The notes under the pieces were generated by a model, which was not told the DNA's origin, made no database searches, and worked only from the letters and a program-made list of their open reading frames with translations. From a virus (lineage: Duplodnaviria > Caudoviricetes), in the IMG/VR virus record IMGVR_UViG_3300030419_008000, positions 1 to 60,947 of that record: a stretch of 60,947 bases of DNA; one strand, written 5' to 3'. Made by a program: the position numbers and the translations under genes. This document shows positions 6,596-60,944 of this stretch, one piece after another (the stretch's first letter is position 1; each line of letters starts with the position of its first letter).

Positions 6596-9340
6596 CTATG
6601 TGTTTTCAAATTGAGTTACAACATGTTGCTTCTTAAATTCAAAGTTAATGTCAATCTTTCTGCCAGTGTCTTTTGAAGTCAGGCGAAGTTTGAATTTCTG
6701 ATCCCATATGGGGTCTTCTGCTACGCCCAGCTTTAAATCAATGTCCGGCGGATCATTGTTTATAATTAGTTCTTTTGCTGATTCTATTTCGTAAAATCTA
6801 CTAGAATATTCATCCATAACTACCTGACTAAATGTAGGTTTAATTTTAATCAATCTTTTGGCAGATTTTTTATATGTTCTGCCATCTGGAATTTCTAGTT
6901 CGATCACGTCAATCAGCGGAAATATGGAAACACCATCATCCACCAACTCAACTTCATACACTGGAGATGGGTACCCTGGGTTATCATGAATATCAATCGA
7001 TCTAACAACATAATAATATTTTCTATTTGCAACTATTTTATCGTCATAATCGATGGCCGAAGAATATTGAACTTCTCCGGTATTTTGCCAATTTGTTGAA
7101 ATAGTTTTATGCAATTTTCCTACAAAATCAGAATAATCTGGCCGTGTTGGCCTAACTGTAGTTCTATAAATTTCAAAAGCTTTTGGGTGATCGTCTGATT
7201 TATATAAGATTTCATTTGTATTACGCGAAACTGAACGCGCGGTTTTAAATCGTAAAATTACATCTGAGTCTGACTGCTCTAAAACTATTGGCTCTAAGCT
7301 TATTTCTCCAATTGCCCCTTTCATGAACAACTTAATTACATTAGATTTACCCCTGTATGGATAGATTGTAACATCGGGGGCAAGTGGTAGAGAATCAACA
7401 ATTGCTCCCTTTGATACCATGTAAGGAACTTCAAAAATTTGAATAGAAGGCGAAAGCACAACATTAAACTCTGCTATAAACTCATTTTGTTCATCAGTGT
7501 AGAAATACGTTGTTGTTCTTGTTCTTGTGTCGGTTTCGCTAAAATTGTATGGCAAACGCTGCTCAACAATCTCTTCAGTATCTACGTCGACCAATTCAAC
7601 ACACAACCTGGGCGGAAGGCCGGCTTCAGTGCGTTCTGGATCAGTTCTGCTAACAACGCGGCTGGTCGCTATTGATTCGTATCCATATTTTGAGCCAATA
7701 ACAATTTTATAAGCATAGACAATATAAGTATAGTTTTTGTCAAACTTTACCTGCGTATCTATAATGTCAACCAATTCAGTTTCATTTGTGTCCGGAACCC
7801 AGAAATTTTGAATCGGAGTTCTCGTCGCCGCTTGTGATTCAGTTAGTCGACCCTCAAATTTTGCAATTCTATACATAACTGTCTCAGCATATGCAGGGGC
7901 TCCATTTAGAATGTCATGATATTTTCTGTGTCTTTGTGATATAATGTCGCGAAGTTTCGCAGCAAAAATTATCATTAACATATTTTTATAAACTTCATAA
8001 TCTGCACTCATAGCGAGGCGTGTTTCCATAGACATGTTTCCAAACATTACAGATTCAGCATTAAATTCACCGGTACCCCTATTATAAAAGTCTTGCCACC
8101 ACGAAGTTAAATCAATAGTGCGTAAAGCTGCGTCCCTATCTGATATCGCAAATTGTTCTAAAGTGTCATCCGAAGCCAGGACCGGACGTGTAAAAACTTC
8201 TGTAAACGGAGTTTCGCGCACTGGCAGTTCGTCTGGCGATTCTTGAAAAAACGTTTCAAGCATATCTTTCATAAAGGAGGAAAAAAGATTTGTCTCCACA
8301 AAAAGATCTTTCAATTGCGAACTTTCACCAGTCGTTACATCAGCAGACCACATTTCTGAATCTTTTACAACCGTTTCTTCAGTACCAAACGATATTCTGG
8401 CATAGAACGGAAACAATACTGCATGATCATTATAATTGACTAAGCTCTTATATGCACCAACAGGATATAGTAAATTATAAAATCTAGAATCAAGCCTGTT
8501 AGTTAGCAATCTAGTTGCCTCTGTGGCACTAGCAATTGCAAACTTTCTCATATATTCCTTCATCGAAAAGAATTCGCCCTTAGTAAGATAGTAATCACCA
8601 GAGGTGCCATCAGGCATTATTTCTTGATCTATACGAAGAGCATATATAAAGCTCGTAGATATGACGCCATTTAAGGTTAAGTGATCAATAAAAATTGAAT
8701 CATTGAAATACCCTAAGCCCGTGCCTCTCCTTATCTCTCCAGAGCCGGCTTCAATTGTATCGTCAGACGCCATTAAAGCTGAGACAAAAGCATACATATT
8801 GGGCAGAACACGTTCAGAAACATAACCTTGAGTATACTCTTCGTATCCTGCTTGATAGTAATTGTATACATATTCCACATCGCCGGCCAATTGTCCTGCG
8901 CTGGCTTTAACGGCTTGCGATTCTCTGTTGTTTAGTGGCAGATCAATACCAAAAACATGATCCGAATATTCTGTACCAGCCTCAATATTTGATAACACAA
9001 TATCTCGCCACGCATCATCATCCTCAATTAATCCATCAGAATTGTCGCCAATGATTTTTACAGACAATCTGTAATTCATCCACAAAGGCTCGGTGCGTTC
9101 GGCGCTTTCTCCTACAATTACTCTTTTTATCACATGGCCAGATATATCATATTGAGGTGCATATGGAGATCCAATTATTGAATAATCGCCACCTAGAATT
9201 GGCGCACCGGTGGCATCAGAGCCATTAAATGCCAGCTCACCACCAGATATGTGCCAATACTTCTTTATCGCCTTGCGAAATAAGTCGGTTGGATCTTCGT
9301 AAAGTGTCGAGTCTATATATGTTCTTGCTTTAATACTCAT
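6596..9340 (-). CDS. large acidic hypothetical protein (914 aa), probably structural; possible FN3-like beta domains near the C-terminus
   Basis: ORF track. FEIYRT...YDDKIVANRKYYYVVRSID and DTQVKFDKNYTYIVYA are FN3/Ig-like strand patterns. Confidence 0.6.
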   Translation of the reverse strand: MSIKARTYIDSTLYEDPTDLFRKAIKKYWHISGGELAFNGSDATGAPILGGDYSIIGSPYAPQYDISGHVIKRVIVGESAERTEPLWMNYRLSVKIIGDNSDGLIEDDDAWRDIVLSNIEAGTEYSDHVFGIDLPLNNRESQAVKASAGQLAGDVEYVYNYYQAGYEEYTQGYVSERVLPNMYAFVSALMASDDTIEAGSGEIRRGTGLGYFNDSIFIDHLTLNGVISTSFIYALRIDQEIMPDGTSGDYYLTKGEFFSMKEYMRKFAIASATEATRLLTNRLDSRFYNLLYPVGAYKSLVNYNDHAVLFPFYARISFGTEETVVKDSEMWSADVTTGESSQLKDLFVETNLFSSFMKDMLETFFQESPDELPVRETPFTEVFTRPVLASDDTLEQFAISDRDAALRTIDLTSWWQDFYNRGTGEFNAESVMFGNMSMETRLAMSADYEVYKNMLMIIFAAKLRDIISQRHRKYHDILNGAPAYAETVMYRIAKFEGRLTESQAATRTPIQNFWVPDTNETELVDIIDTQVKFDKNYTYIVYAYKIVIGSKYGYESIATSRVVSRTDPERTEAGLPPRLCVELVDVDTEEIVEQRLPYNFSETDTRTRTTTYFYTDEQNEFIAEFNVVLSPSIQIFEVPYMVSKGAIVDSLPLAPDVTIYPYRGKSNVIKLFMKGAIGEISLEPIVLEQSDSDVILRFKTARSVSRNTNEILYKSDDHPKAFEIYRTTVRPTRPDYSDFVGKLHKTISTNWQNTGEVQYSSAIDYDDKIVANRKYYYVVRSIDIHDNPGYPSPVYEVELVDDGVSIFPLIDVIELEIPDGRTYKKSAKRLIKIKPTFSQVVMDEYSSRFYEIESAKELIINNDPPDIDLKLGVAEDPIWDQKFKLRLTSKDTGRKIDINFEFKKQHVVTQFENT

Positions 9341-12215: not shown

Positions 12216-12222
12216 TAAATAG
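12216..12222 (-). promoter_or_regulatory. candidate late promoter CTATTTA
   Basis: Intergenic, ~19 nt upstream of the ATG at 12197. Confidence 0.6.
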
Positions 12223-12239
12223 TTATATATATATTTTAA

Positions 12240-14429
12240 TCAAACAACTGGGTTACCTTCCAAGTCATAACCTTGGATTGTAGTGGTGAGGGTCTCTGAA
12301 CTCTCTGTTTCGGTAACAAGTATGGTACCATGAGACCCATACGTTGGATCAATTGTACCATCATCTTCGGTATATGTGTATGCATCATTATCAAATGTAC
12401 AACAAACTTCAACCTCATTTATAAACGCGGAGGAAATATCCGTCTCTGGATCTTCTAGATAAGCAGTAAAATCATCCAATAATCCAGTCGTATCTATAAT
12501 ATCTTTCAGTATTTTCAACAATGACTCTGCGTGTTTTATAAAATCTAAAATATATTCTGGACTTGCAGTAGAATAAGTTGGATTCATCTTTGCCAACCAA
12601 TTTGTTACAAAAGTTGAAACATCACCAGATAAAAACCCCCAATCTATAAAATATTTATGAAGAACATAAAAATCATAGATTATGCCAAGCAAAGTACCCT
12701 CGAAAGTGTCGATGAGCAAAAATGTAGGACCATAATTCAATTCAATAAATTCGATAAATATTTCATTAAACTCATCTGTGTATTCATGATAGTGGCATGG
12801 CAATATTGAATCATGATAATATCTTTCTAAGATCTTCATTTGCAATCCGAGGTCAGCATACAAATCTATCAAGAATTGCGACATTTCATCTTTAAATGTT
12901 ACACAGATCTTGTACTCAATTGATTGTTCTGTAGTTTGAAGAAAGTCGCTGCAGCCGTTGTTGTATTGCGCTTCTGTAAAAAGATCTATACCCCATGTTG
13001 TAACAGGAGTAGTATTTCTGACCGTATTGGCTGCTATATCCTTTCCAATATCCAAAAAAGATATAACCTGTAGTGGGGAATGATTTTCAGAAGTAAATCC
13101 AAGAAACTCTCCTATTTCTTCAACAAAACCACTCGCATCGCCCTGCGATGCGAAGTCTGAGCTTTCTGTATAAAGGTCCTCATGGGGATAATATGTGGAA
13201 CTTTCAAACACATTGTCACTATAATTCATAGTAGCATAAAGCGTTTCAGTTACTGTAGTGAGCGCCATCGCTCGGCCGAACGTTTTGGTGCCATCCGCCA
13301 TGCTCTCAGAAGTCCTTCTATAAATATCTATTTTTTGTAATTGAATTAATTCTTCATCAACAACAAGTTGACGAAATGTCTCATTAGCTAACATAAAGCC
13401 CATTGGAGATTCAAACCTTACCATTCTCATAAGATCAAAAAACACGATACCTCGCATATGAAGACCATTGTAGAAGTATTGGTCTCGCTCGCCCTGTCGG
13501 GCGGCTAGCACGTCTACTTCTTCAGTATATGATTCTGTCGCTGTCAAATACAGCTTAAAGTGTGAACAATTGTCCGCGTCATATGCATTTTCAGCCACAA
13601 ACATGCCTGTGCCTTCATACAGAGAGCTTTCATCAACTACGCCAGCTGACGCTATATAATTGTCTAAAACAACCATGTATGACCCGTCGCCATAAATTGC
13701 ATTAAAGACTGATGAGGCCATGGCTGCAGGGCCTAGACCAAAATCTCTTGCGATTTCTTGCATATCAATAAAACAAAGAGCAAAATAAGTTATGTGACCT
13801 TCCATGTATTCGCCATCAATTTCAAACTCTGCTCTATATGGCACTCTGTATGTTTTGTTTCTTCCAGGGCCTGGGGCGTCTATCCCGTCTGATAAGACCT
13901 GATCATAAAATTTATCAATACTATTGAACATATTTTGGTTTAATGAAATATCCTCAATATGAAGAAACTTTCCCTCGGCAATTTGTTCAGATTCTGCTAG
14001 CCACAAGGTGTGCACTCTTTGATATTCCGGAGAATCTTCGCCCATCTCATAGTCATCCGGAGAAGGTTCGGCATCCGAAATTAAGCTTACTAGTGTGCTC
14101 CAAAGTCCCATAGCGTCCCAGAACCCGTTAAGAGTTGACAAAGCAGAAGGATTAGCAATTAAATAATCGGTTGCGACAGGAGATAATGATTGCACAATTC
14201 GAAGTTTTACATAATCTGTTAGATCCGGAGCTTTTCTTCCTTCGCCAAAATCGGTAGCTTCGCCTTTAACAAATTGAAACAATTGCGTGTTGACTCCCAA
14301 AGAATCTACTGTATCTGTCAAAAACATATTAACTTCTGTCTTATATGTTACCCCAGAAGCAGAGTCTTCTTCCCCTTCTGAAAAAAGCTTAATTGTGCCT
14401 AGTTCTGGAGCAGGAATTAATCTGGACAT
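12240..14429 (-). CDS. acidic hypothetical protein (729 aa), probably structural
   Basis: ORF track; tail module context; GGGGA SD. Confidence 0.65.
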   Translation of the reverse strand: MSRLIPAPELGTIKLFSEGEEDSASGVTYKTEVNMFLTDTVDSLGVNTQLFQFVKGEATDFGEGRKAPDLTDYVKLRIVQSLSPVATDYLIANPSALSTLNGFWDAMGLWSTLVSLISDAEPSPDDYEMGEDSPEYQRVHTLWLAESEQIAEGKFLHIEDISLNQNMFNSIDKFYDQVLSDGIDAPGPGRNKTYRVPYRAEFEIDGEYMEGHITYFALCFIDMQEIARDFGLGPAAMASSVFNAIYGDGSYMVVLDNYIASAGVVDESSLYEGTGMFVAENAYDADNCSHFKLYLTATESYTEEVDVLAARQGERDQYFYNGLHMRGIVFFDLMRMVRFESPMGFMLANETFRQLVVDEELIQLQKIDIYRRTSESMADGTKTFGRAMALTTVTETLYATMNYSDNVFESSTYYPHEDLYTESSDFASQGDASGFVEEIGEFLGFTSENHSPLQVISFLDIGKDIAANTVRNTTPVTTWGIDLFTEAQYNNGCSDFLQTTEQSIEYKICVTFKDEMSQFLIDLYADLGLQMKILERYYHDSILPCHYHEYTDEFNEIFIEFIELNYGPTFLLIDTFEGTLLGIIYDFYVLHKYFIDWGFLSGDVSTFVTNWLAKMNPTYSTASPEYILDFIKHAESLLKILKDIIDTTGLLDDFTAYLEDPETDISSAFINEVEVCCTFDNDAYTYTEDDGTIDPTYGSHGTILVTETESSETLTTTIQGYDLEGNPVV

Positions 14430-15491: not shown

Positions 15492-18400
15492 TTATCCTTG
15501 TGGTTCAATTTGCTGCGGTAGCGAGCCTGCGCTATTCTTTTGTTTTTTTCGCTTACGACTTCGTTCTCGTTTTGATCCGCGTGTTCTCGGTTTTTTGGCT
15601 GCGGTGTCTTCGATGCGGTTCTCTTCAGGTACTTCCTCTCCGTGTTCTGAAATCTCTACTTCTACCTCTAGCTTGGCCATTTCAATTATTGAAAAATAAT
15701 CATAGGGCCAATTATAAGTATATTCCATTTCTTTTGTTATAAGAGAGTTGCCCTGTTTGTTAATATTGTCATCAAGTTTCGATTTAGTCAACTTGTTGCC
15801 AGAAGCATTAAGAGCAACAATTTGATCAGAATACTTTTGAACTGCTTTTTGTTTTACTTTGAACACCATCCACTGTAAATTGTCGTTCAGAGGTGTGCCG
15901 TCCATAGCCTGTTTGTATCCCATTAACTCTGTTGCAAATAGTTTATGAGATACGGCAGCTTCAGCACTTTTAACAACTGTATGATTTCTAGGTGGCAAAT
16001 TTTGCCACATATAATTCAAATCATTTTTGTCGAACTCGTACTCAAATTCAAAAATATACATCGCGAAAGGCGTGATATCTTCATAAAGTAAGAAGTTCAT
16101 ATTTGGTGGAAAAACATATTTGTCCATTTTTTCAACCATATCCTTAATAGACTGGCCGGCGAGAGCACCGTCAACTACGGCAGCATCAATATATTCTCTA
16201 GGAATCTCAAAGAATTTACGTTTTCCACCAATTTGCAAGAAAGGAACAGCAACAATTGCTTCACTTACAACATTTTTTTCTAAGATTTCACCTAATCTTG
16301 TAGATTCTTTTTTAAATCCAACTAAATCCGCCAAGGATTTCATATCTTTATAAATTTTTGCTGCTTGGCCAGCTGTTTTATTTTTAGTATAAAATCCATT
16401 AGCAACTGCTGCGCGGGGACTATATTTCAAAAAGTTTTTTGGTATATCAGATACTTCTATCTTAATGCCCATATCTTGATTTTCTGGAATTGTTCCAAAC
16501 TGGTGCCACATTCCTCTCGTACAAGATGCAGATAGTTGATTTGACGGGCGCGTAAAAGTATTACTAGTTGTCTTAATTGATCTATTTCCAAACACACCAA
16601 AATTAAGAATTGGGGTTTCTGCCTTCATTTGTATTGTCCAGGCACTTGATAAAGTTTCACGCGTGACAAAATCTTTTCCAGAAGCATTTTGATTTGTATA
16701 TTCTATTTTGTCAACAACTGGTACTTTTTCTAGCGCGAACAAATTCATGCTTGCACTAATTTGCATAGAGTTTTTGTTGATGTTTGCGCCATTTAATGGA
16801 GCATTTGGGTTAGATCCGCTAATAATATATGCATAATCGTTTTCTGCATAAGTGCCCGACCAAGTTGCTCCTGCCTCTCCCTCATCGAATCTTAAATAAT
16901 CCACGGATGCACTGGCCAATATGTCTTTAATTGTGTATGTTTTGCTTTCTTTAACATAAAACACAACATCTGCCCATGCATGACCATCATAGTATGGAGG
17001 AGTATAGGGTGAGTATATGCCGTTTACAAAATCATATCCGCCAACCTTGTGTTCGGCTTCAAAGCTAGCCAGCGCTGATCCATCGGTTCCATGCATTGGC
17101 GGCCCAAAAGCACTTGGACGGCTATACATTGTTAATAACTCAACACCATTTGTATTGGCAACTGTTGCTATTCCATGTTGTGGAAGATCATATTTTATTC
17201 CACCTCTTTCTGACGCTGAGCCGGCGGTTACTCCAATAAACGGTTCAAGGTGCCATGTTCTAGATTTCTTTGTCTGGTTATACATAGCAATTCTCATTCC
17301 ATAGATTTGATTTTTCGTCAAGCTAAGATTCAAGTCGCTATCAGGCAAAGAAGTTATTTTAGTATATGTCTTGTCTCGCAAAAAGAAGTTTGGCACTTCA
17401 CCCCAAAACTGACTGGCCATCATTGAATATTGCGGTCTATGTCGAAGTCCGAATGCCGCTGTTACATGCAAAGAGGCAGATATGTGCGGCTCATTATCAT
17501 AAAGCGGCGTTCCTGCTAGATGAACATGAGGTTCTATAATTGCCTCAAATGGAATTCTTTTATCAAAGGTGGCTTTTTCGTTTGCTAAGCCAGTTTGTTT
17601 ATCAGAACTAAACCCATCACCGGAATTCCAAGAAAAGTTTGCCGCAACGGTCCATGCATGATAATCTGTTGCTGGAACCTGTTGTCTAATGAAGCGGTCA
17701 GGATCTGTCCAGACCGGATAATCACAAGCAACGCCGGCTTTAATTGTGTTATAAAATATTCCCGGTGCAAAGGACCATTGCCATAGTGGCCTAACAGCTG
17801 CCTTCTTTCTTGTAGAATGCTCACCGGTAACATCAGCGCCTATAAGATGAGAGGCTGAATATTGGTTAGCCATTTTTACAGAGTATTGAGCTGGGTAAAA
17901 GTCATCATATGGCATAAATTTGATCGCTGCCTTCATAGTCAAAGAAATTTCAGACGGATCAACCATCTCCTCATGATCATTAATAATAATACCCAAATAT
18001 TTCATTACATCTGAATTTGAAAAAATAGTATAAAAGTTCTCTTGACTACTGTTTTGCGGTACAGAGTTTGAGGTGTTGGGGGTTCCAGGAATTTCAAAAA
18101 GATAAGGATTATCAGCTCTAAAATTTCCGCCGGCAGAATCAAGGTAAAAATCTATATGTTCACTAATTCTAAATTCTGGAATTATTGAATAATCTTTATA
18201 TTGGGCGCGCAAGTCCAAAATATAATCGTCATAATCTTTATACCATGGATCGGTCGAATGAGATACAAAATAATAATCTCCCACAACGTTGGCGCGGCCA
18301 GTTTTAGACAAAGATTCCAAACTTTGTGTCAAAGCCCAATATCCAGCTAAGTCGTTCGCTTCCCATTTTGTAACTCCCAGGGGTACGTTGATTTTTCTAA

Positions 18401-58175: not shown

Positions 58176-59510
58176 TTATAAAAGTTTTGCTGCTAATGTT
58201 GCAACTTTTGATCTTTCACCCTTTTCAAGCGTTATATGACCAGCCAAAGACGAGTGTTTGAATTTTTCAACCGCATGAACTAAGCCATTTGAAGTTTCAT
58301 CAACATAAACGTTATCAATTTGCTCAATGTCTCCGGTCAATACAATTTTTGTATTTTCGCCGACGCGCGTAATAATTGTTTTGATTTCATGTGTTGTTAA
58401 GTTTTGTGCTTCGTCAATCACTACATAAGCGTTTGATATCGAACGACCTCTAATATATGTTAAAGCTTCAATTTCAATGGTTCCTTTTTGTACATACATA
58501 TCTAGTGTTGCATTATCATCTCCAAGCAAGTATCGTAAATTGTCTTGCACTGGTGCTAACCATGGAGTCATTTTCTCTTCTATGGTTCCTGGTAGGAACC
58601 CTATGTCTTTTCCAAGCGGCTGAACGGGCCTGGAGACGATTAGGCGCTTATACACAGGTTCACTACCGTCTCCTGCCGCCATAACCTGTGAGAGGCCTGC
58701 AGCGATCGCACAGAGCGTCTTGCCAGAACCAGCTTTTCCAATTAGCGATACCACCGGAATATCAGGATTGGTTAAAAGATCCATTGCAAATGTCTGCTCT
58801 TTATTGCGCGCTTTTACGCCCCAAAGACCCTTTTTATAATTGATCACTCGCGATAGGGGCTTAGAGTACTCTATAAATCTAGCTAATGCTGTTTTTTTAT
58901 CATTTGAGCTTGACACCAACATTAAAAGTTGATTAGCATAGCATTTTACCCTTTCTTCCTCTAGAAACACTAAGTCTCCTTCATAAAATTGATCTACGAA
59001 TTCGTCATCAACCAAAACTTTTAAAAATCCAGTGTATAAACTTGTTGTATCTTTTATTACTGTTGTTGCAATATAGTCTTCTGATTGTAGCCCAATTGAA
59101 TCACTAATTACACGCAAATTTATGTCGCGAGAAACCATAATTACTTTTCTATTTGGAATTCTTTGCTTAACAGCTAGCGCAGTTGCTATAATTATATGAT
59201 CTGGTAAATTAGGGTCTAAATCATAAGGAAGCTTTTCCACAACAGAAGAATCAATTCCTTCAATTGTCATAGTTCCCTTTCCTTTTGCAATTTTTACACC
59301 ACTTTTTAAAGATCCTTTTTCTCTAAGATTGTCCAATATTCTAATAACACGTCGGGCTTGAGATCCTACGCCATCTTGTCGTTTTTTGTGCTTGTCAATC
59401 TCTTCAAGCACTTTTAGAGGAATTACGATATCATGATATCCATAATCGAATATTACATTTGAATTTGTTAAACAAGCACTGGTATCAAGTACATATATTT
59501 TCTTTGCCAT
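58176..59510 (-). CDS. phoH: PIN-domain PhoH-family ATPase (PhoH2/YlaK type)
   Basis: PIN: YVLDTS...V.EEID...D..II...VSRD.NLR. PhoH: RNKEQ, GKAGSGKT, RP, IGFLPG...EKM.PW, YIRGRSI, IDEAQN and GD..QID. Confidence 0.92.
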   Translation of the reverse strand: MAKKIYVLDTSACLTNSNVIFDYGYHDIVIPLKVLEEIDKHKKRQDGVGSQARRVIRILDNLREKGSLKSGVKIAKGKGTMTIEGIDSSVVEKLPYDLDPNLPDHIIIATALAVKQRIPNRKVIMVSRDINLRVISDSIGLQSEDYIATTVIKDTTSLYTGFLKVLVDDEFVDQFYEGDLVFLEEERVKCYANQLLMLVSSSNDKKTALARFIEYSKPLSRVINYKKGLWGVKARNKEQTFAMDLLTNPDIPVVSLIGKAGSGKTLCAIAAGLSQVMAAGDGSEPVYKRLIVSRPVQPLGKDIGFLPGTIEEKMTPWLAPVQDNLRYLLGDDNATLDMYVQKGTIEIEALTYIRGRSISNAYVVIDEAQNLTTHEIKTIITRVGENTKIVLTGDIEQIDNVYVDETSNGLVHAVEKFKHSSLAGHITLEKGERSKVATLAAKLL

Positions 59511-59938: not shown

Positions 59939-60553
59939 TTAAGGCAAATTGTACATACCTGCCTGTGCCCACTCCTCAAAGACGGTGTGCATAGTAATTT
60001 TACCATCATTAATATAATAACTTTTAACACCACTGTTTTGATATTGAGTTGTAACTTCATATAATAATATGTTAGCTGCCTGTGAAGTGTTTAAGCAATA
60101 ACCAACACCGGGCATTGGAATATATATCTTATCGCTATTATTTAATATCTCAATTGGAATTCCTACTTCTTCATGCCCAACAACAATACAAATTGGTTGT
60201 GTAAAATCAAAATTATAACTTTCAATTGATTCAGATCCTTCACACAACTCAGCAGAAATTAATTTTATATTATTAGCTTTTGCATATTCTACAAACTTAG
60301 ATGGATCGCTATGCTGATCGATATTCACATAATCGACCAAAGTGCCAGAAAGTGGATTAAGAACTTTTCTATTTGGAATGGTTCCTATAACATGGACCCG
60401 ATCAGCGCCAAAACAAGCAGCAGAACGAATGAGGTAACCGATATTACCATCATGTTTAAAATTAACTGTGGCAATACTGATAGGAAACGTTTTAGCCGTT
60501 TTCTTTTTTGCATCATAACGTTGTCTTCTTGTTTTTTCTCTTTGCAATTGCAA
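59939..60553 (-). CDS. SpoU/TrmH-family RNA 2'-O-methyltransferase
   Basis: SPOUT motifs NIGYLIRSAACFG, VVGHEEVGI and IYIPMPG..CLNTSQAANILLYE. Confidence 0.88.
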   Translation of the reverse strand: MQLQREKTRRQRYDAKKKTAKTFPISIATVNFKHDGNIGYLIRSAACFGADRVHVIGTIPNRKVLNPLSGTLVDYVNIDQHSDPSKFVEYAKANNIKLISAELCEGSESIESYNFDFTQPICIVVGHEEVGIPIEILNNSDKIYIPMPGVGYCLNTSQAANILLYEVTTQYQNSGVKSYYINDGKITMHTVFEEWAQAGMYNLP

Positions 60554-60564
60554 CCGCCTTACTG

Positions 60565-60846
60565 TTAATTAGTTTTTATTTTTTTGATTATATCTTCTTC
60601 ATTAATAAAAGTCAAATCTTCATTAGCTTTGCGAAATGAAATTTGCCATTTTTTTCTCAACATATCAACTTCTTTTTGATAAATTGGCGTAGCTTCCCAG
60701 GTTGTATATCCTGGCCATGGCCAATTGGGATCTCTCCCTTTTGACGGTTTAATGACAATTTTTCTAAGCAGTTTAACATGAAATTTTGGTATTGCTTTTC
60801 CAGCAGCGCTTCTAACCAAAACAATGTCGCCTTCTTTGTATTTCAT
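60565..60846 (-). CDS. small basic hypothetical protein (93 aa), SH3/KOW-like start
   Basis: MKYKEGDIVLVRS; ORF track. Confidence 0.65.
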   Translation of the reverse strand: MKYKEGDIVLVRSAAGKAIPKFHVKLLRKIVIKPSKGRDPNWPWPGYTTWEATPIYQKEVDMLRKKWQISFRKANEDLTFINEEDIIKKIKTN

Positions 60847-60854
60847 ATTTTATA

Positions 60855-60944
60855 TGGTAGGAGATGGAGGAATTGAACCTCATTGGGCACCGCCCGGCCT
60901 CGTTTTGCCAAAGGCTTATAAGACCCCCGCCGGGGACATCTCCC
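60855..60944 (-). tRNA. atypical tRNA-like RNA: 8/4 fold, UAU (Ile) anticodon, no canonical D-arm
   Basis: GGGAGATG TCCCCGG CGGGGGT CT-TAT-AA GCCTTTG (27-nt extra region) GAGG TTCAATT CCTC CATCTCCT A CCA. Confidence 0.65.

Follow-up and report, generated by a model that had tools for sequence, protein, structure and literature searches.

A candidate tRNA(UAU) gene with a rewired body plan in a marine phage contig and its relatives in other phages

The window examined here is a whole IMG/VR virus record of 60,947 nt, with a GC content of 38.6% and an estimated completeness of 21%, in which all the 42 ORFs of at least 100 amino acids are carried by the minus strand. The tRNA-like element under study is found on the same strand, running from 60944 to 60855 at 3 nt from the end of this marine phage contig, and its 5' flank is missing because the contig stops 3 nt upstream. 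A 93-amino acid ORF starts 10 nt downstream of the element, and a SpoU methylase, a PhoH2 helicase and a canonical tRNA-Thr are located farther downstream on the same strand. Homologues of the 93-amino acid ORF at two loci were found to have ordinary tRNAs or nothing upstream. The top NCBIfam match of the SpoU methylase is TrmH (G18 2'-O-methylase), with 75 bits, which is under the cut-off. The window stretch is present in marine metagenomes from several studies; contigs of RNA run X20 reach only 60449-60714 and DNA-run contigs of relatives cover the element. No close relative of the window phage was found among the cultured phages. The features of the locus and the parts of the element, numbered from its 5' end, are as follows.

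58176-59510, minus strand: PIN-PhoH2 RNA helicase, which together with the SpoU methylase sits between the element and tRNA-Thr
59939-60553, minus strand: SpoU methylase
60855-60944, minus strand: candidate rewired tRNA gene, reading in reverse complement GGGAGAUG...CAUCUCCU-A-CCA
60937-60944, minus strand: acceptor 5' strand (nt 1-8, GGGAGAUG), pairing with 60859-60866
60929-60934, minus strand: helix A 5' strand (nt 11-16, CCCGGC), with its partner at 60893-60898
60911-60927, minus strand: anticodon arm (nt 18-34), stem GGGGU/GCCUU and loop CUUAUAA, with UAU at 60918-60920
60906-60909, minus strand: 5' strand of helix B (nt 36-39, GGCA), a stem resembling a variable arm
60899-60905, minus strand: loop L1 (nt 40-46, AAACGAG), an A-rich connector
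60893-60898, minus strand: helix A 3' strand (nt 47-52, GCCGGG), as placed in alignment A5
60890-60892, minus strand: CGG (nt 53-55), of which GG is the proposed equivalent of G18-G19
60886-60889, minus strand: helix B 3' strand (nt 56-59, UGCC), closing the pseudoknot with helix A
60867-60881, minus strand: T arm (nt 64-78), 4-bp stem GAGG/CCUC and loop UUCAAUU
60855-60866, minus strand: acceptor 3' strand CAUCUCCU, discriminator A (60858) and CCA (60855-60857)

The original prediction had set the limits of the element exactly at 60855-60944, and the 8-bp acceptor stem, the 4-bp T stem with UUCAAUU loop, the discriminator A followed by CCA and the CUUAUAA loop on a G.U-rich stem which it described are all present. 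Its spacings needed correction, since 9 nt and not 7 lie in the place of the D arm between the acceptor and the 5-bp anticodon stem, and the extra region between the anticodon stem and the T stem measures 29 nt instead of 27. The pairing scheme offered for that region was also wrong. The GGGC/GCCC pairing does exist in the window sequence but it is not a conserved pairing (82.5% paired in 18 relatives, with little covariation), and the conserved helices are A (CCCGGC/GCCGGG) and B (GGC(A)/(U)GCC). The description of a part of this region as D-loop-like has fared better, as the two G of CGG do not vary across the family. In the window copy every helix is intact, and its model score of 108.5 bits ranks third among 18. 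The acceptor stem has 8 bp and opens with a G.U pair, helix A has 6/6 Watson-Crick pairs and is followed by CGG, and the anticodon stem GGGGU/GCCUU contains three G.U pairs. Moreover, the hallmarks of a cloverleaf tRNA are present, namely a 12-bp acceptor/T branch, a 7-nt T loop of the form UUCRANY, a 7-nt anticodon loop with U33 and a purine at 37, the discriminator and CCA.

ARAGORN and the Rfam tRNA model RF00005 found no tRNA at this site, and the rewired genes of two further phage records, G001 and G005, are likewise absent among the RF00005 matches. The only Rfam match of the element was tRNA-Sec (RF01852), with 21.1 bits against a cut-off of 47. The element resembles tRNA-Sec in its extended acceptor, 6-bp D-stem, short D loop and long variable arm; membership was rejected on this score, on the anticodon (UAU and not UCA) and on a D-stem that forms no hairpin. 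The single-sequence fold energy is also unremarkable (z = -1.66), which would be expected of a decayed pseudo-tRNA or a chance tRNA-like stretch. Such an origin is contradicted by the homolog covariation check proposed at the outset, in which dozens of relatives show compensatory changes in all of the helices, and we consider its probability to be negligible.

The covariation was followed in 18 UAU members. The acceptor showed changes on both sides in 8/8 pairs with 99.3% of the cells paired, and the T stem was 97.2% paired with covariation in 2/4 pairs. The anticodon stem was 100% paired with 3/5 pairs covarying, where the search patterns fixed the anticodon loop and the inner stem pairs and left the outer pairs free. 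In helix A (nt 11-16 with 47-52), compensatory changes were seen in 6/6 pairs and 98.1% of the cells were paired. Alignments A5 and A7 were both fitted with a model containing helix A, and the members are related, so that the cell counts exceed the number of independent events. Alignment A5 was produced by model R2, which includes helix A; the MAFFT alignment A1 and the one produced by model R1, which lacks helix A, have gaps in the helix A 3' strand and were not used to count it. In A5 this strand is formed by the six bases immediately 5' of a conserved NGGU, gapless in 18/18 rows. The helix A sequences are fully divergent (CCCGGC/GCCGGG, CUCGUU/AACGAG, CAUCUC/GAGAUG, CCAACC/GGUUGG, UCCGGC/GUCGGA) and only two cells are non-standard, and because the helix holds G.U pairs the fold is assigned to the minus-strand RNA. 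When 27 GUA and UCU relatives were aligned by model R2, again 6/6 pairs of helix A covaried, with 95.1% paired. The long-range helix did not reach significance when each sequence was shuffled on its own (p about 0.2), and this test was replaced by positional covariation because G/C-rich strands pair easily. Taken over the 18 UAU members, the whole structure was 94.8% paired in comparison to 69.3% after shuffling (0/500 reach the observed value) and 42-52% when the strands were slid. The discriminator is A in 18/18 and CCA is encoded in 12/18. This strong family covariation indicates that the element is beyond chance. The proposal of a re-wired tRNA whose D arm is replaced by the extra region agrees with the covariation in the 18 UAU and the 27 GUA/UCU members. 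A local D hairpin, CCCC/GGGG, was rejected; it is 66.2% paired in the 18 relatives with one pair covarying and competes with the anticodon stem. As a separate observation, the first acceptor pair (A5 column 1 with 94) is G.U in 8/18 UAU members including the window copy, in 3/7 UCU members and in 0/20 GUA members.

The anticodon arm is nested within helix A, and the three bases after this arm pair with a triplet before the T stem to form helix B. A Watson-Crick complement of the helix B triplet lies within the 11 nt before the T stem in 39/44 members, in comparison to 12.0 +/- 2.5 members after permutation, where 0/1000 permutations reached 39. Because helices A and B interleave, the core is a predicted pseudoknot. 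Loop L1 is 6-10 nt long in alignment A5, with UAAAC or AAAAC recurring, and NGG follows helix A in 43/45 parsed members, the remaining two being register slips of the parsing script. The T loops are canonical in the rewired family.

In viral contigs, 9 loci matched a search pattern of anticodon stem-loop, gap and T loop, as did 23 in metagenome contigs and one in bacterial genomes, and a looser pattern returned more than 119 viral loci, with 85 distinct among the matches listed. The script parsed 86 distinct elements, all of them with discriminator A. An exact 22-nt scan of viral contigs gave no matches. With blastn against cultured phages the window element matched T arms only and a GUA member gave no match. 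The single bacterial MAG that matched the exact UAU pattern has a local D arm. Model R2 at E <= 1e-6 found none in 151 bacterial genomes of the order of the MAG behind locus L036, a weak negative with 29 candidates scored per genome. A pattern scan with a different gap returned other long-arm UAU tRNAs and missed the rewired family. A diverged P1 member at L034 (2428-2518) is called tRNA-Arg(gcg) by ARAGORN. The relatives were divided into the following groups.

P1 (window-like): 8/4 branch, 83-91 nt, 18 distinct sequences among the matches listed
P2: 7/5 branch, about 77 nt
P3: 7/5 branch and an additional stem, assigned by eye only
Class S: ordinary local D arm and long variable arm, classed by eye

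In P2 the wiring was found in a plain MAFFT alignment without structural guidance, in which 3/3 pairs of helix A covary in 18 members with 100% paired. Helix A is followed here by a U-A-R-Y-U-G-G-U-G stretch, and its R pairs, in register, with the Y that immediately precedes the T stem (GC in 15, AU in 3 and none unpaired, where the three AU cases may be one lineage), as in an R15:Y48-like pair. The proportions of P1 would mirror those of tRNA-Sec, with its 8/4 branch, 6-bp D-stem and very short D loop, and those of P2 would mirror an ordinary tRNA, with a 7/5 branch, 3 bp plus UA/UA and a D loop of 8-9 nt.

The UAU tRNAs of class S, which have a normal D arm, carry a GAU triplet in the variable region of all, usually as AGAU. 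GAT was counted in 33/33 and AGAT in 30/33 of these, in comparison to shuffled means of 13.2 and 3.6, and the rewired forms gave 6/49 and 1/49. The class comprises loci L005, L007, L024, L036, L037, L044, L065, L068, L075, L082, L111 and L141 with their relatives, and G001:161920-162028. By eye, the triplet lies in the hairpin loop of the variable arm. It resembles a copy of the anticodon of the major tRNA-Ile and perhaps recruits IleRS.

The original prediction dealt with the UAU anticodon, and the plan is not specific to it, as GUA, UCU, GAU, CAU, UCG and ACG are also found. When the anticodon was left free in the search pattern, with CUNNNAA as its loop and UUCAAUU as the T loop, 76 distinct matches were returned, and in 38/76 the acceptor has at least 7 bp and the anticodon stem at least 4 bp (GUA 15, UAU 13, UCU 7 and CAU 3). 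The 8/4 plan is also seen on GUA (20 sequences) and UCU (7), and the 7/5 plan carries UAU and CAU and, in cultured Streptomyces phages, GAU, UCG, ACG and UCU. This list of anticodons is a lower bound because the patterns fixed CUNNNAA and most of them also GGUG and the T loop. The members located in cultured Streptomyces phages, which belong to the genus Samistivirus, are given below.

Jay2Jay (Samistivirus), 75237-75313: P2 member with GAU
Mildred21 (NC_042008.1), 73703-73779: P2 member with GAU, unannotated
Mildred21 (NC_042008.1), 91367-91442: P2 member with UCG, labelled tRNA-Phe(gaa) in GenBank
Mildred21 (NC_042008.1), 94857-94933: P2 member with ACG, unannotated
Mildred21 (NC_042008.1), 86379-86453: P2 member with UCU, labelled tRNA-OTHER in GenBank, a weaker match of 35 bits
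EGole (NC_055791.1), 75265-75341: rewired, labelled tRNA-Leu, GAU by homology with Jay2Jay

With blastn the Streptomyces phage element was found in 37-49 records of such phages, and its place is unannotated in nearly all of them. The GAU copy directly follows a tRNA nucleotidyltransferase gene in Jay2Jay and Mildred21. Streptomyces phages with the rewired GAU tRNA also hold a canonical tRNA-Ile(gat), hence the rewired copy is not always the sole decoder. UAU tRNAs, described as rare at the outset, are not so in phages, where a canonical tRNA-Ile(tat) occurs in G005 and is included in the annotation of Jay2Jay.

The genomic context and the identity elements point to a function in translation. 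Rewired genes lie within a few nucleotides of ordinary tRNAs in phage tRNA arrays, and each of the five phage records searched has one or two of them. Among the 28 Rfam tRNA matches of G001, a complete record of 176 kb, 23 were called by ARAGORN. Reading by eye settled four more, namely Gly-UCC, Asp-GUC, a UAU tRNA with a long arm and a tRNA with an 8-nt loop, which leaves one (12220-12340) without an assignment. Tyr and Arg(UCU) are missing among the 27 assigned tRNAs, and the two rewired genes of this record are exactly these, the GUA gene being its only tyrosine tRNA candidate. In the complete record G005, no Tyr is found among the 27 tRNAs called by ARAGORN, and a rewired GUA gene sits between tRNA-Ile(tat) and tRNA-Ser. 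Further, the base after GG is A in 6/7 UCU members and in 2/38 others (Fisher p = 2.3e-5), and also in 3/3 arginine members of Mildred21. The main determinant of ArgRS is A20, along with A/G73, according to the excerpted text of PMC9976931. By its position in the sequence, the A after GG in the UCU members matches this determinant; G73 is found in 2/7 of them. The GUA members have G1-C72 in 17/20 and A73 in 19/20, and the combination of G1-C72 and A73 is given as the bacterial tyrosine elements in the same excerpt (PMC9976931). The weight of these counts is reduced by the kinship among the sequences.

A tRNA-shaped RNA outside translation, acting as a decoy or sponge for anticodon nucleases or tRNA-binding defence proteins or as a regulator, would explain why standard tRNA finders reject the element and why phages with rewired genes can carry canonical tRNAs of the same anticodon. 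The RNA ligase and polynucleotide kinase genes of Jay2Jay suggest a pressure from tRNA nucleases, and in the excerpted part of Mukai et al. (PMC5389517) six allo-tRNA(UAU) variants from soil showed no activity when used as amber suppressors in E. coli. However, a decoy needs neither a 12-bp acceptor/T branch, A73 and an encoded CCA nor an A20-like base which tracks the anticodon. The decoy alternative raised in the original prediction is disfavoured by the filling of the otherwise empty Tyr and Arg(UCU) slots of the complete record G001 and by anticodons that track the synthetase identity elements, and we regard it as unlikely.

ATA forms 29% of the isoleucine codons of the window (19.6 per 1000), and the window tRNA has A35, U36, A37, A38 and A73, which are relevant to IleRS; GAU is also found on the 7/5 body in Streptomyces phages. 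The window element is probably an AUA-decoding tRNA charged with isoleucine. IleRS of the E. coli type is reported to use position 34, and the recognition of UAU by IleRS varies with lineage, due to which isoleucine charging is the weakest and least secure step of this proposal. The body could have another identity (Tyr, Leu or Ser), in which case a different amino acid would be inserted at AUA. GUA is found on the same 8/4 body, A73 fits Leu and Tyr too, allo-tRNAs insert Ser at non-Ser codons, and the V-arm UAU tRNAs of nematodes are described as alternative-code leucine decoders in an excerpt of PMC3333845. Nevertheless, U35, which the excerpt of PMC9976931 gives as critical for TyrRS, is A here, and the G73/U73 of Ser-type allo-tRNAs is found in 0/18. 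The A20-like base varies with the class of anticodon, an argument for bodies tuned to their anticodons, and the AUA codons of the window stand within ordinary-looking ORFs. Such mis-acylation seems very unlikely.

Among the (8/4) allo-tRNAs, UAU is the most abundant group and 'five-stem-junction' variants occur, as stated in the excerpted text of Mukai et al. 2017 (PMC5389517). The rewired family shares with them, as far as that excerpt describes them, the 8-bp acceptor with a 4-bp T stem, the long extra arm, the weak likeness to tRNA-Sec and the common UAU, and the window element could thereby be an ordinary published member, possibly an inactive relic tied to mobile elements. In the same excerpt, the allo-tRNAs have a local D hairpin with a long stem and tetraloop, mostly G73/U73, and they occur in Acidobacteria and relatives, often near toxin-antitoxin genes. 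In contrast, the D-stem of the rewired family is made with the extra region (nt 47-52), A73 is invariant in its UAU members (18/18), a local D hairpin is not conserved (66% paired), the helices are all intact and the genes belong to phage tRNA arrays and not to acidobacterial toxin-antitoxin loci. From the suggested link to allo-tRNAs and SelC*-type tRNAs only the 8/4 branch has therefore stood, as neither G73/U73 nor a conserved local D hairpin is found, and simple membership in this group is highly improbable. No description of this wiring was found in the literature as searched; the supplement of PMC5389517 (Figure S5, allo-tRNA(UAU) structures) may show related sequences.

Other known tRNAs share single traits with the family. 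In D-armless mitochondrial tRNAs, the 5' connector pairs with bases beyond the anticodon arm, on its 3' side, and thereby makes the anticodon helix longer; this is likewise seen in the rewired family. The metazoan mt-tRNA-Ser(AGY) also lacks the D hairpin, but in the excerpted account of PMC4013460 the D-armless mitochondrial tRNAs are shrunken and have lost the D/T-loop contact. The rewired tRNAs are full-sized or larger, have a D-loop-like A-R-Y-U-G-G and a canonical T loop, and belong to phages of bacteria. All known bacterial tRNAs are canonical cloverleaves according to Edelmann et al. 2024, whose artificial D-armless 'mini HisT' is usable by E. coli; in the excerpted text (PMC11551756) it is engineered, unlike the present genes, and required a pnp mutation. 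The nematode nev-tRNA with UAU combines a class II-like body with an isoleucine anticodon, whereas it is eukaryotic, has a normal D arm and is tied to alternative-code leucine decoding in the excerpt of PMC3333845.

The best explanation, to which we assign a probability of roughly 70%, is that the element encodes, as an intact gene, a phage elongator tRNA(UAU) with a rewired body plan, which is likely charged by the host IleRS and reads AUA. The 8-bp acceptor would stack on the 4-bp T stem to give the usual 12-bp branch. The D hairpin being absent, the D-stem would be built by the 5' connector and the extra region past the anticodon arm, and helix A would extend the anticodon stem by stacking, as the D-stem does. 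Its 5' strand, which continues into the anticodon stem, would serve as positions 22-25 and its 3' strand as positions 10-13, and the GG 3' of helix A may act as G18-G19 by docking on the T loop. An L shape would result with an altered chain connectivity, in which the segment 10-21 is relocated 3' of the anticodon arm. The RNA would be excised from a polycistronic transcript, as the neighbouring tRNAs, and the host IleRS would be the most likely enzyme to charge it, through A35, U36, A37, A38 and A73. The mature tRNA would then read AUA, to which 29% of the Ile codons belong in this fragment of 38.6% GC, and TilS would not be needed.

A wider reading of the family, which we offer tentatively and with some doubt, is that a second tRNA body plan, retained for escape from host factors, is common to a range of phages that includes marine giant phages and cultured Streptomyces siphophages. 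In this plan the D-stem 5' strand and the D loop would be located past the anticodon arm, the core of the 8/4 form would be a pseudoknot, and the Ile, Arg, Tyr and CAU anticodons would all belong to class I synthetases which read the anticodon. The plan might still suit the synthetases, EF-Tu and the ribosome, and the evaded factors might be those which recognise the canonical D arm or elbow, for example defence nucleases that cleave tRNAs, enzymes of decay or enzymes that modify position 34.

To our knowledge, tRNAs outside mitochondria are held to be cloverleaves. If the rewired genes work, the bacterial translation apparatus naturally accepts an L shape of different chain topology. A recurrent class of phage tRNAs is missed or mislabelled by standard annotation, as with four genes of Mildred21 and one of EGole, and hence the tRNA sets of phages and the analyses of codon supply are incomplete. 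The family would offer natural scaffolds for orthogonal tRNAs, and it is testable now because cultured Streptomyces phages carry rewired tRNAs.

Several other unusual RNA genes were observed in the same phages. Long-variable-arm tRNAs of 85-93 nt for Lys, Thr, Cys and Pro are found in the same marine phages (L261 8744-8834, 8846-8930 and 2130-2222; L260 8192-8277, 15712-15798 and 18154-18243), and the one for Lys(UUU) has a 6-bp D stem with a tetraloop, like an allo-tRNA or tRNA-Sec. Default ARAGORN missed G001:165287-165357, 168929-168999, 7586-7657 and 12220-12340; these include Gly(UCC) and Asp(GUC) tRNAs with T loops GGCAGUA/GGCAGCA, one tRNA whose anticodon loop apparently has 8 nt and a tRNA-like gene of 121 nt (G001 12220-12340). 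A CUA (amber-reading) tRNA of G005 (18254-18326) was called tRNA-Pyl by ARAGORN. L019 holds a tmRNA gene (1633-1973, with the tag ANDNVENYNYALAA) at about 430 nt from the family member most closely related to the window tRNA, and Jay2Jay also encodes a tmRNA, along with a Ro60-like protein, RNA ligase and polynucleotide kinase. Another architecture is seen in the L017 3408-3471 region, where a UAU hairpin stands in a 7-bp helix GGCGUCC/GGACGCC inside a further helix. At L012 5309-5387, ARAGORN reports a tRNA with a 4-base anticodon (caaa).
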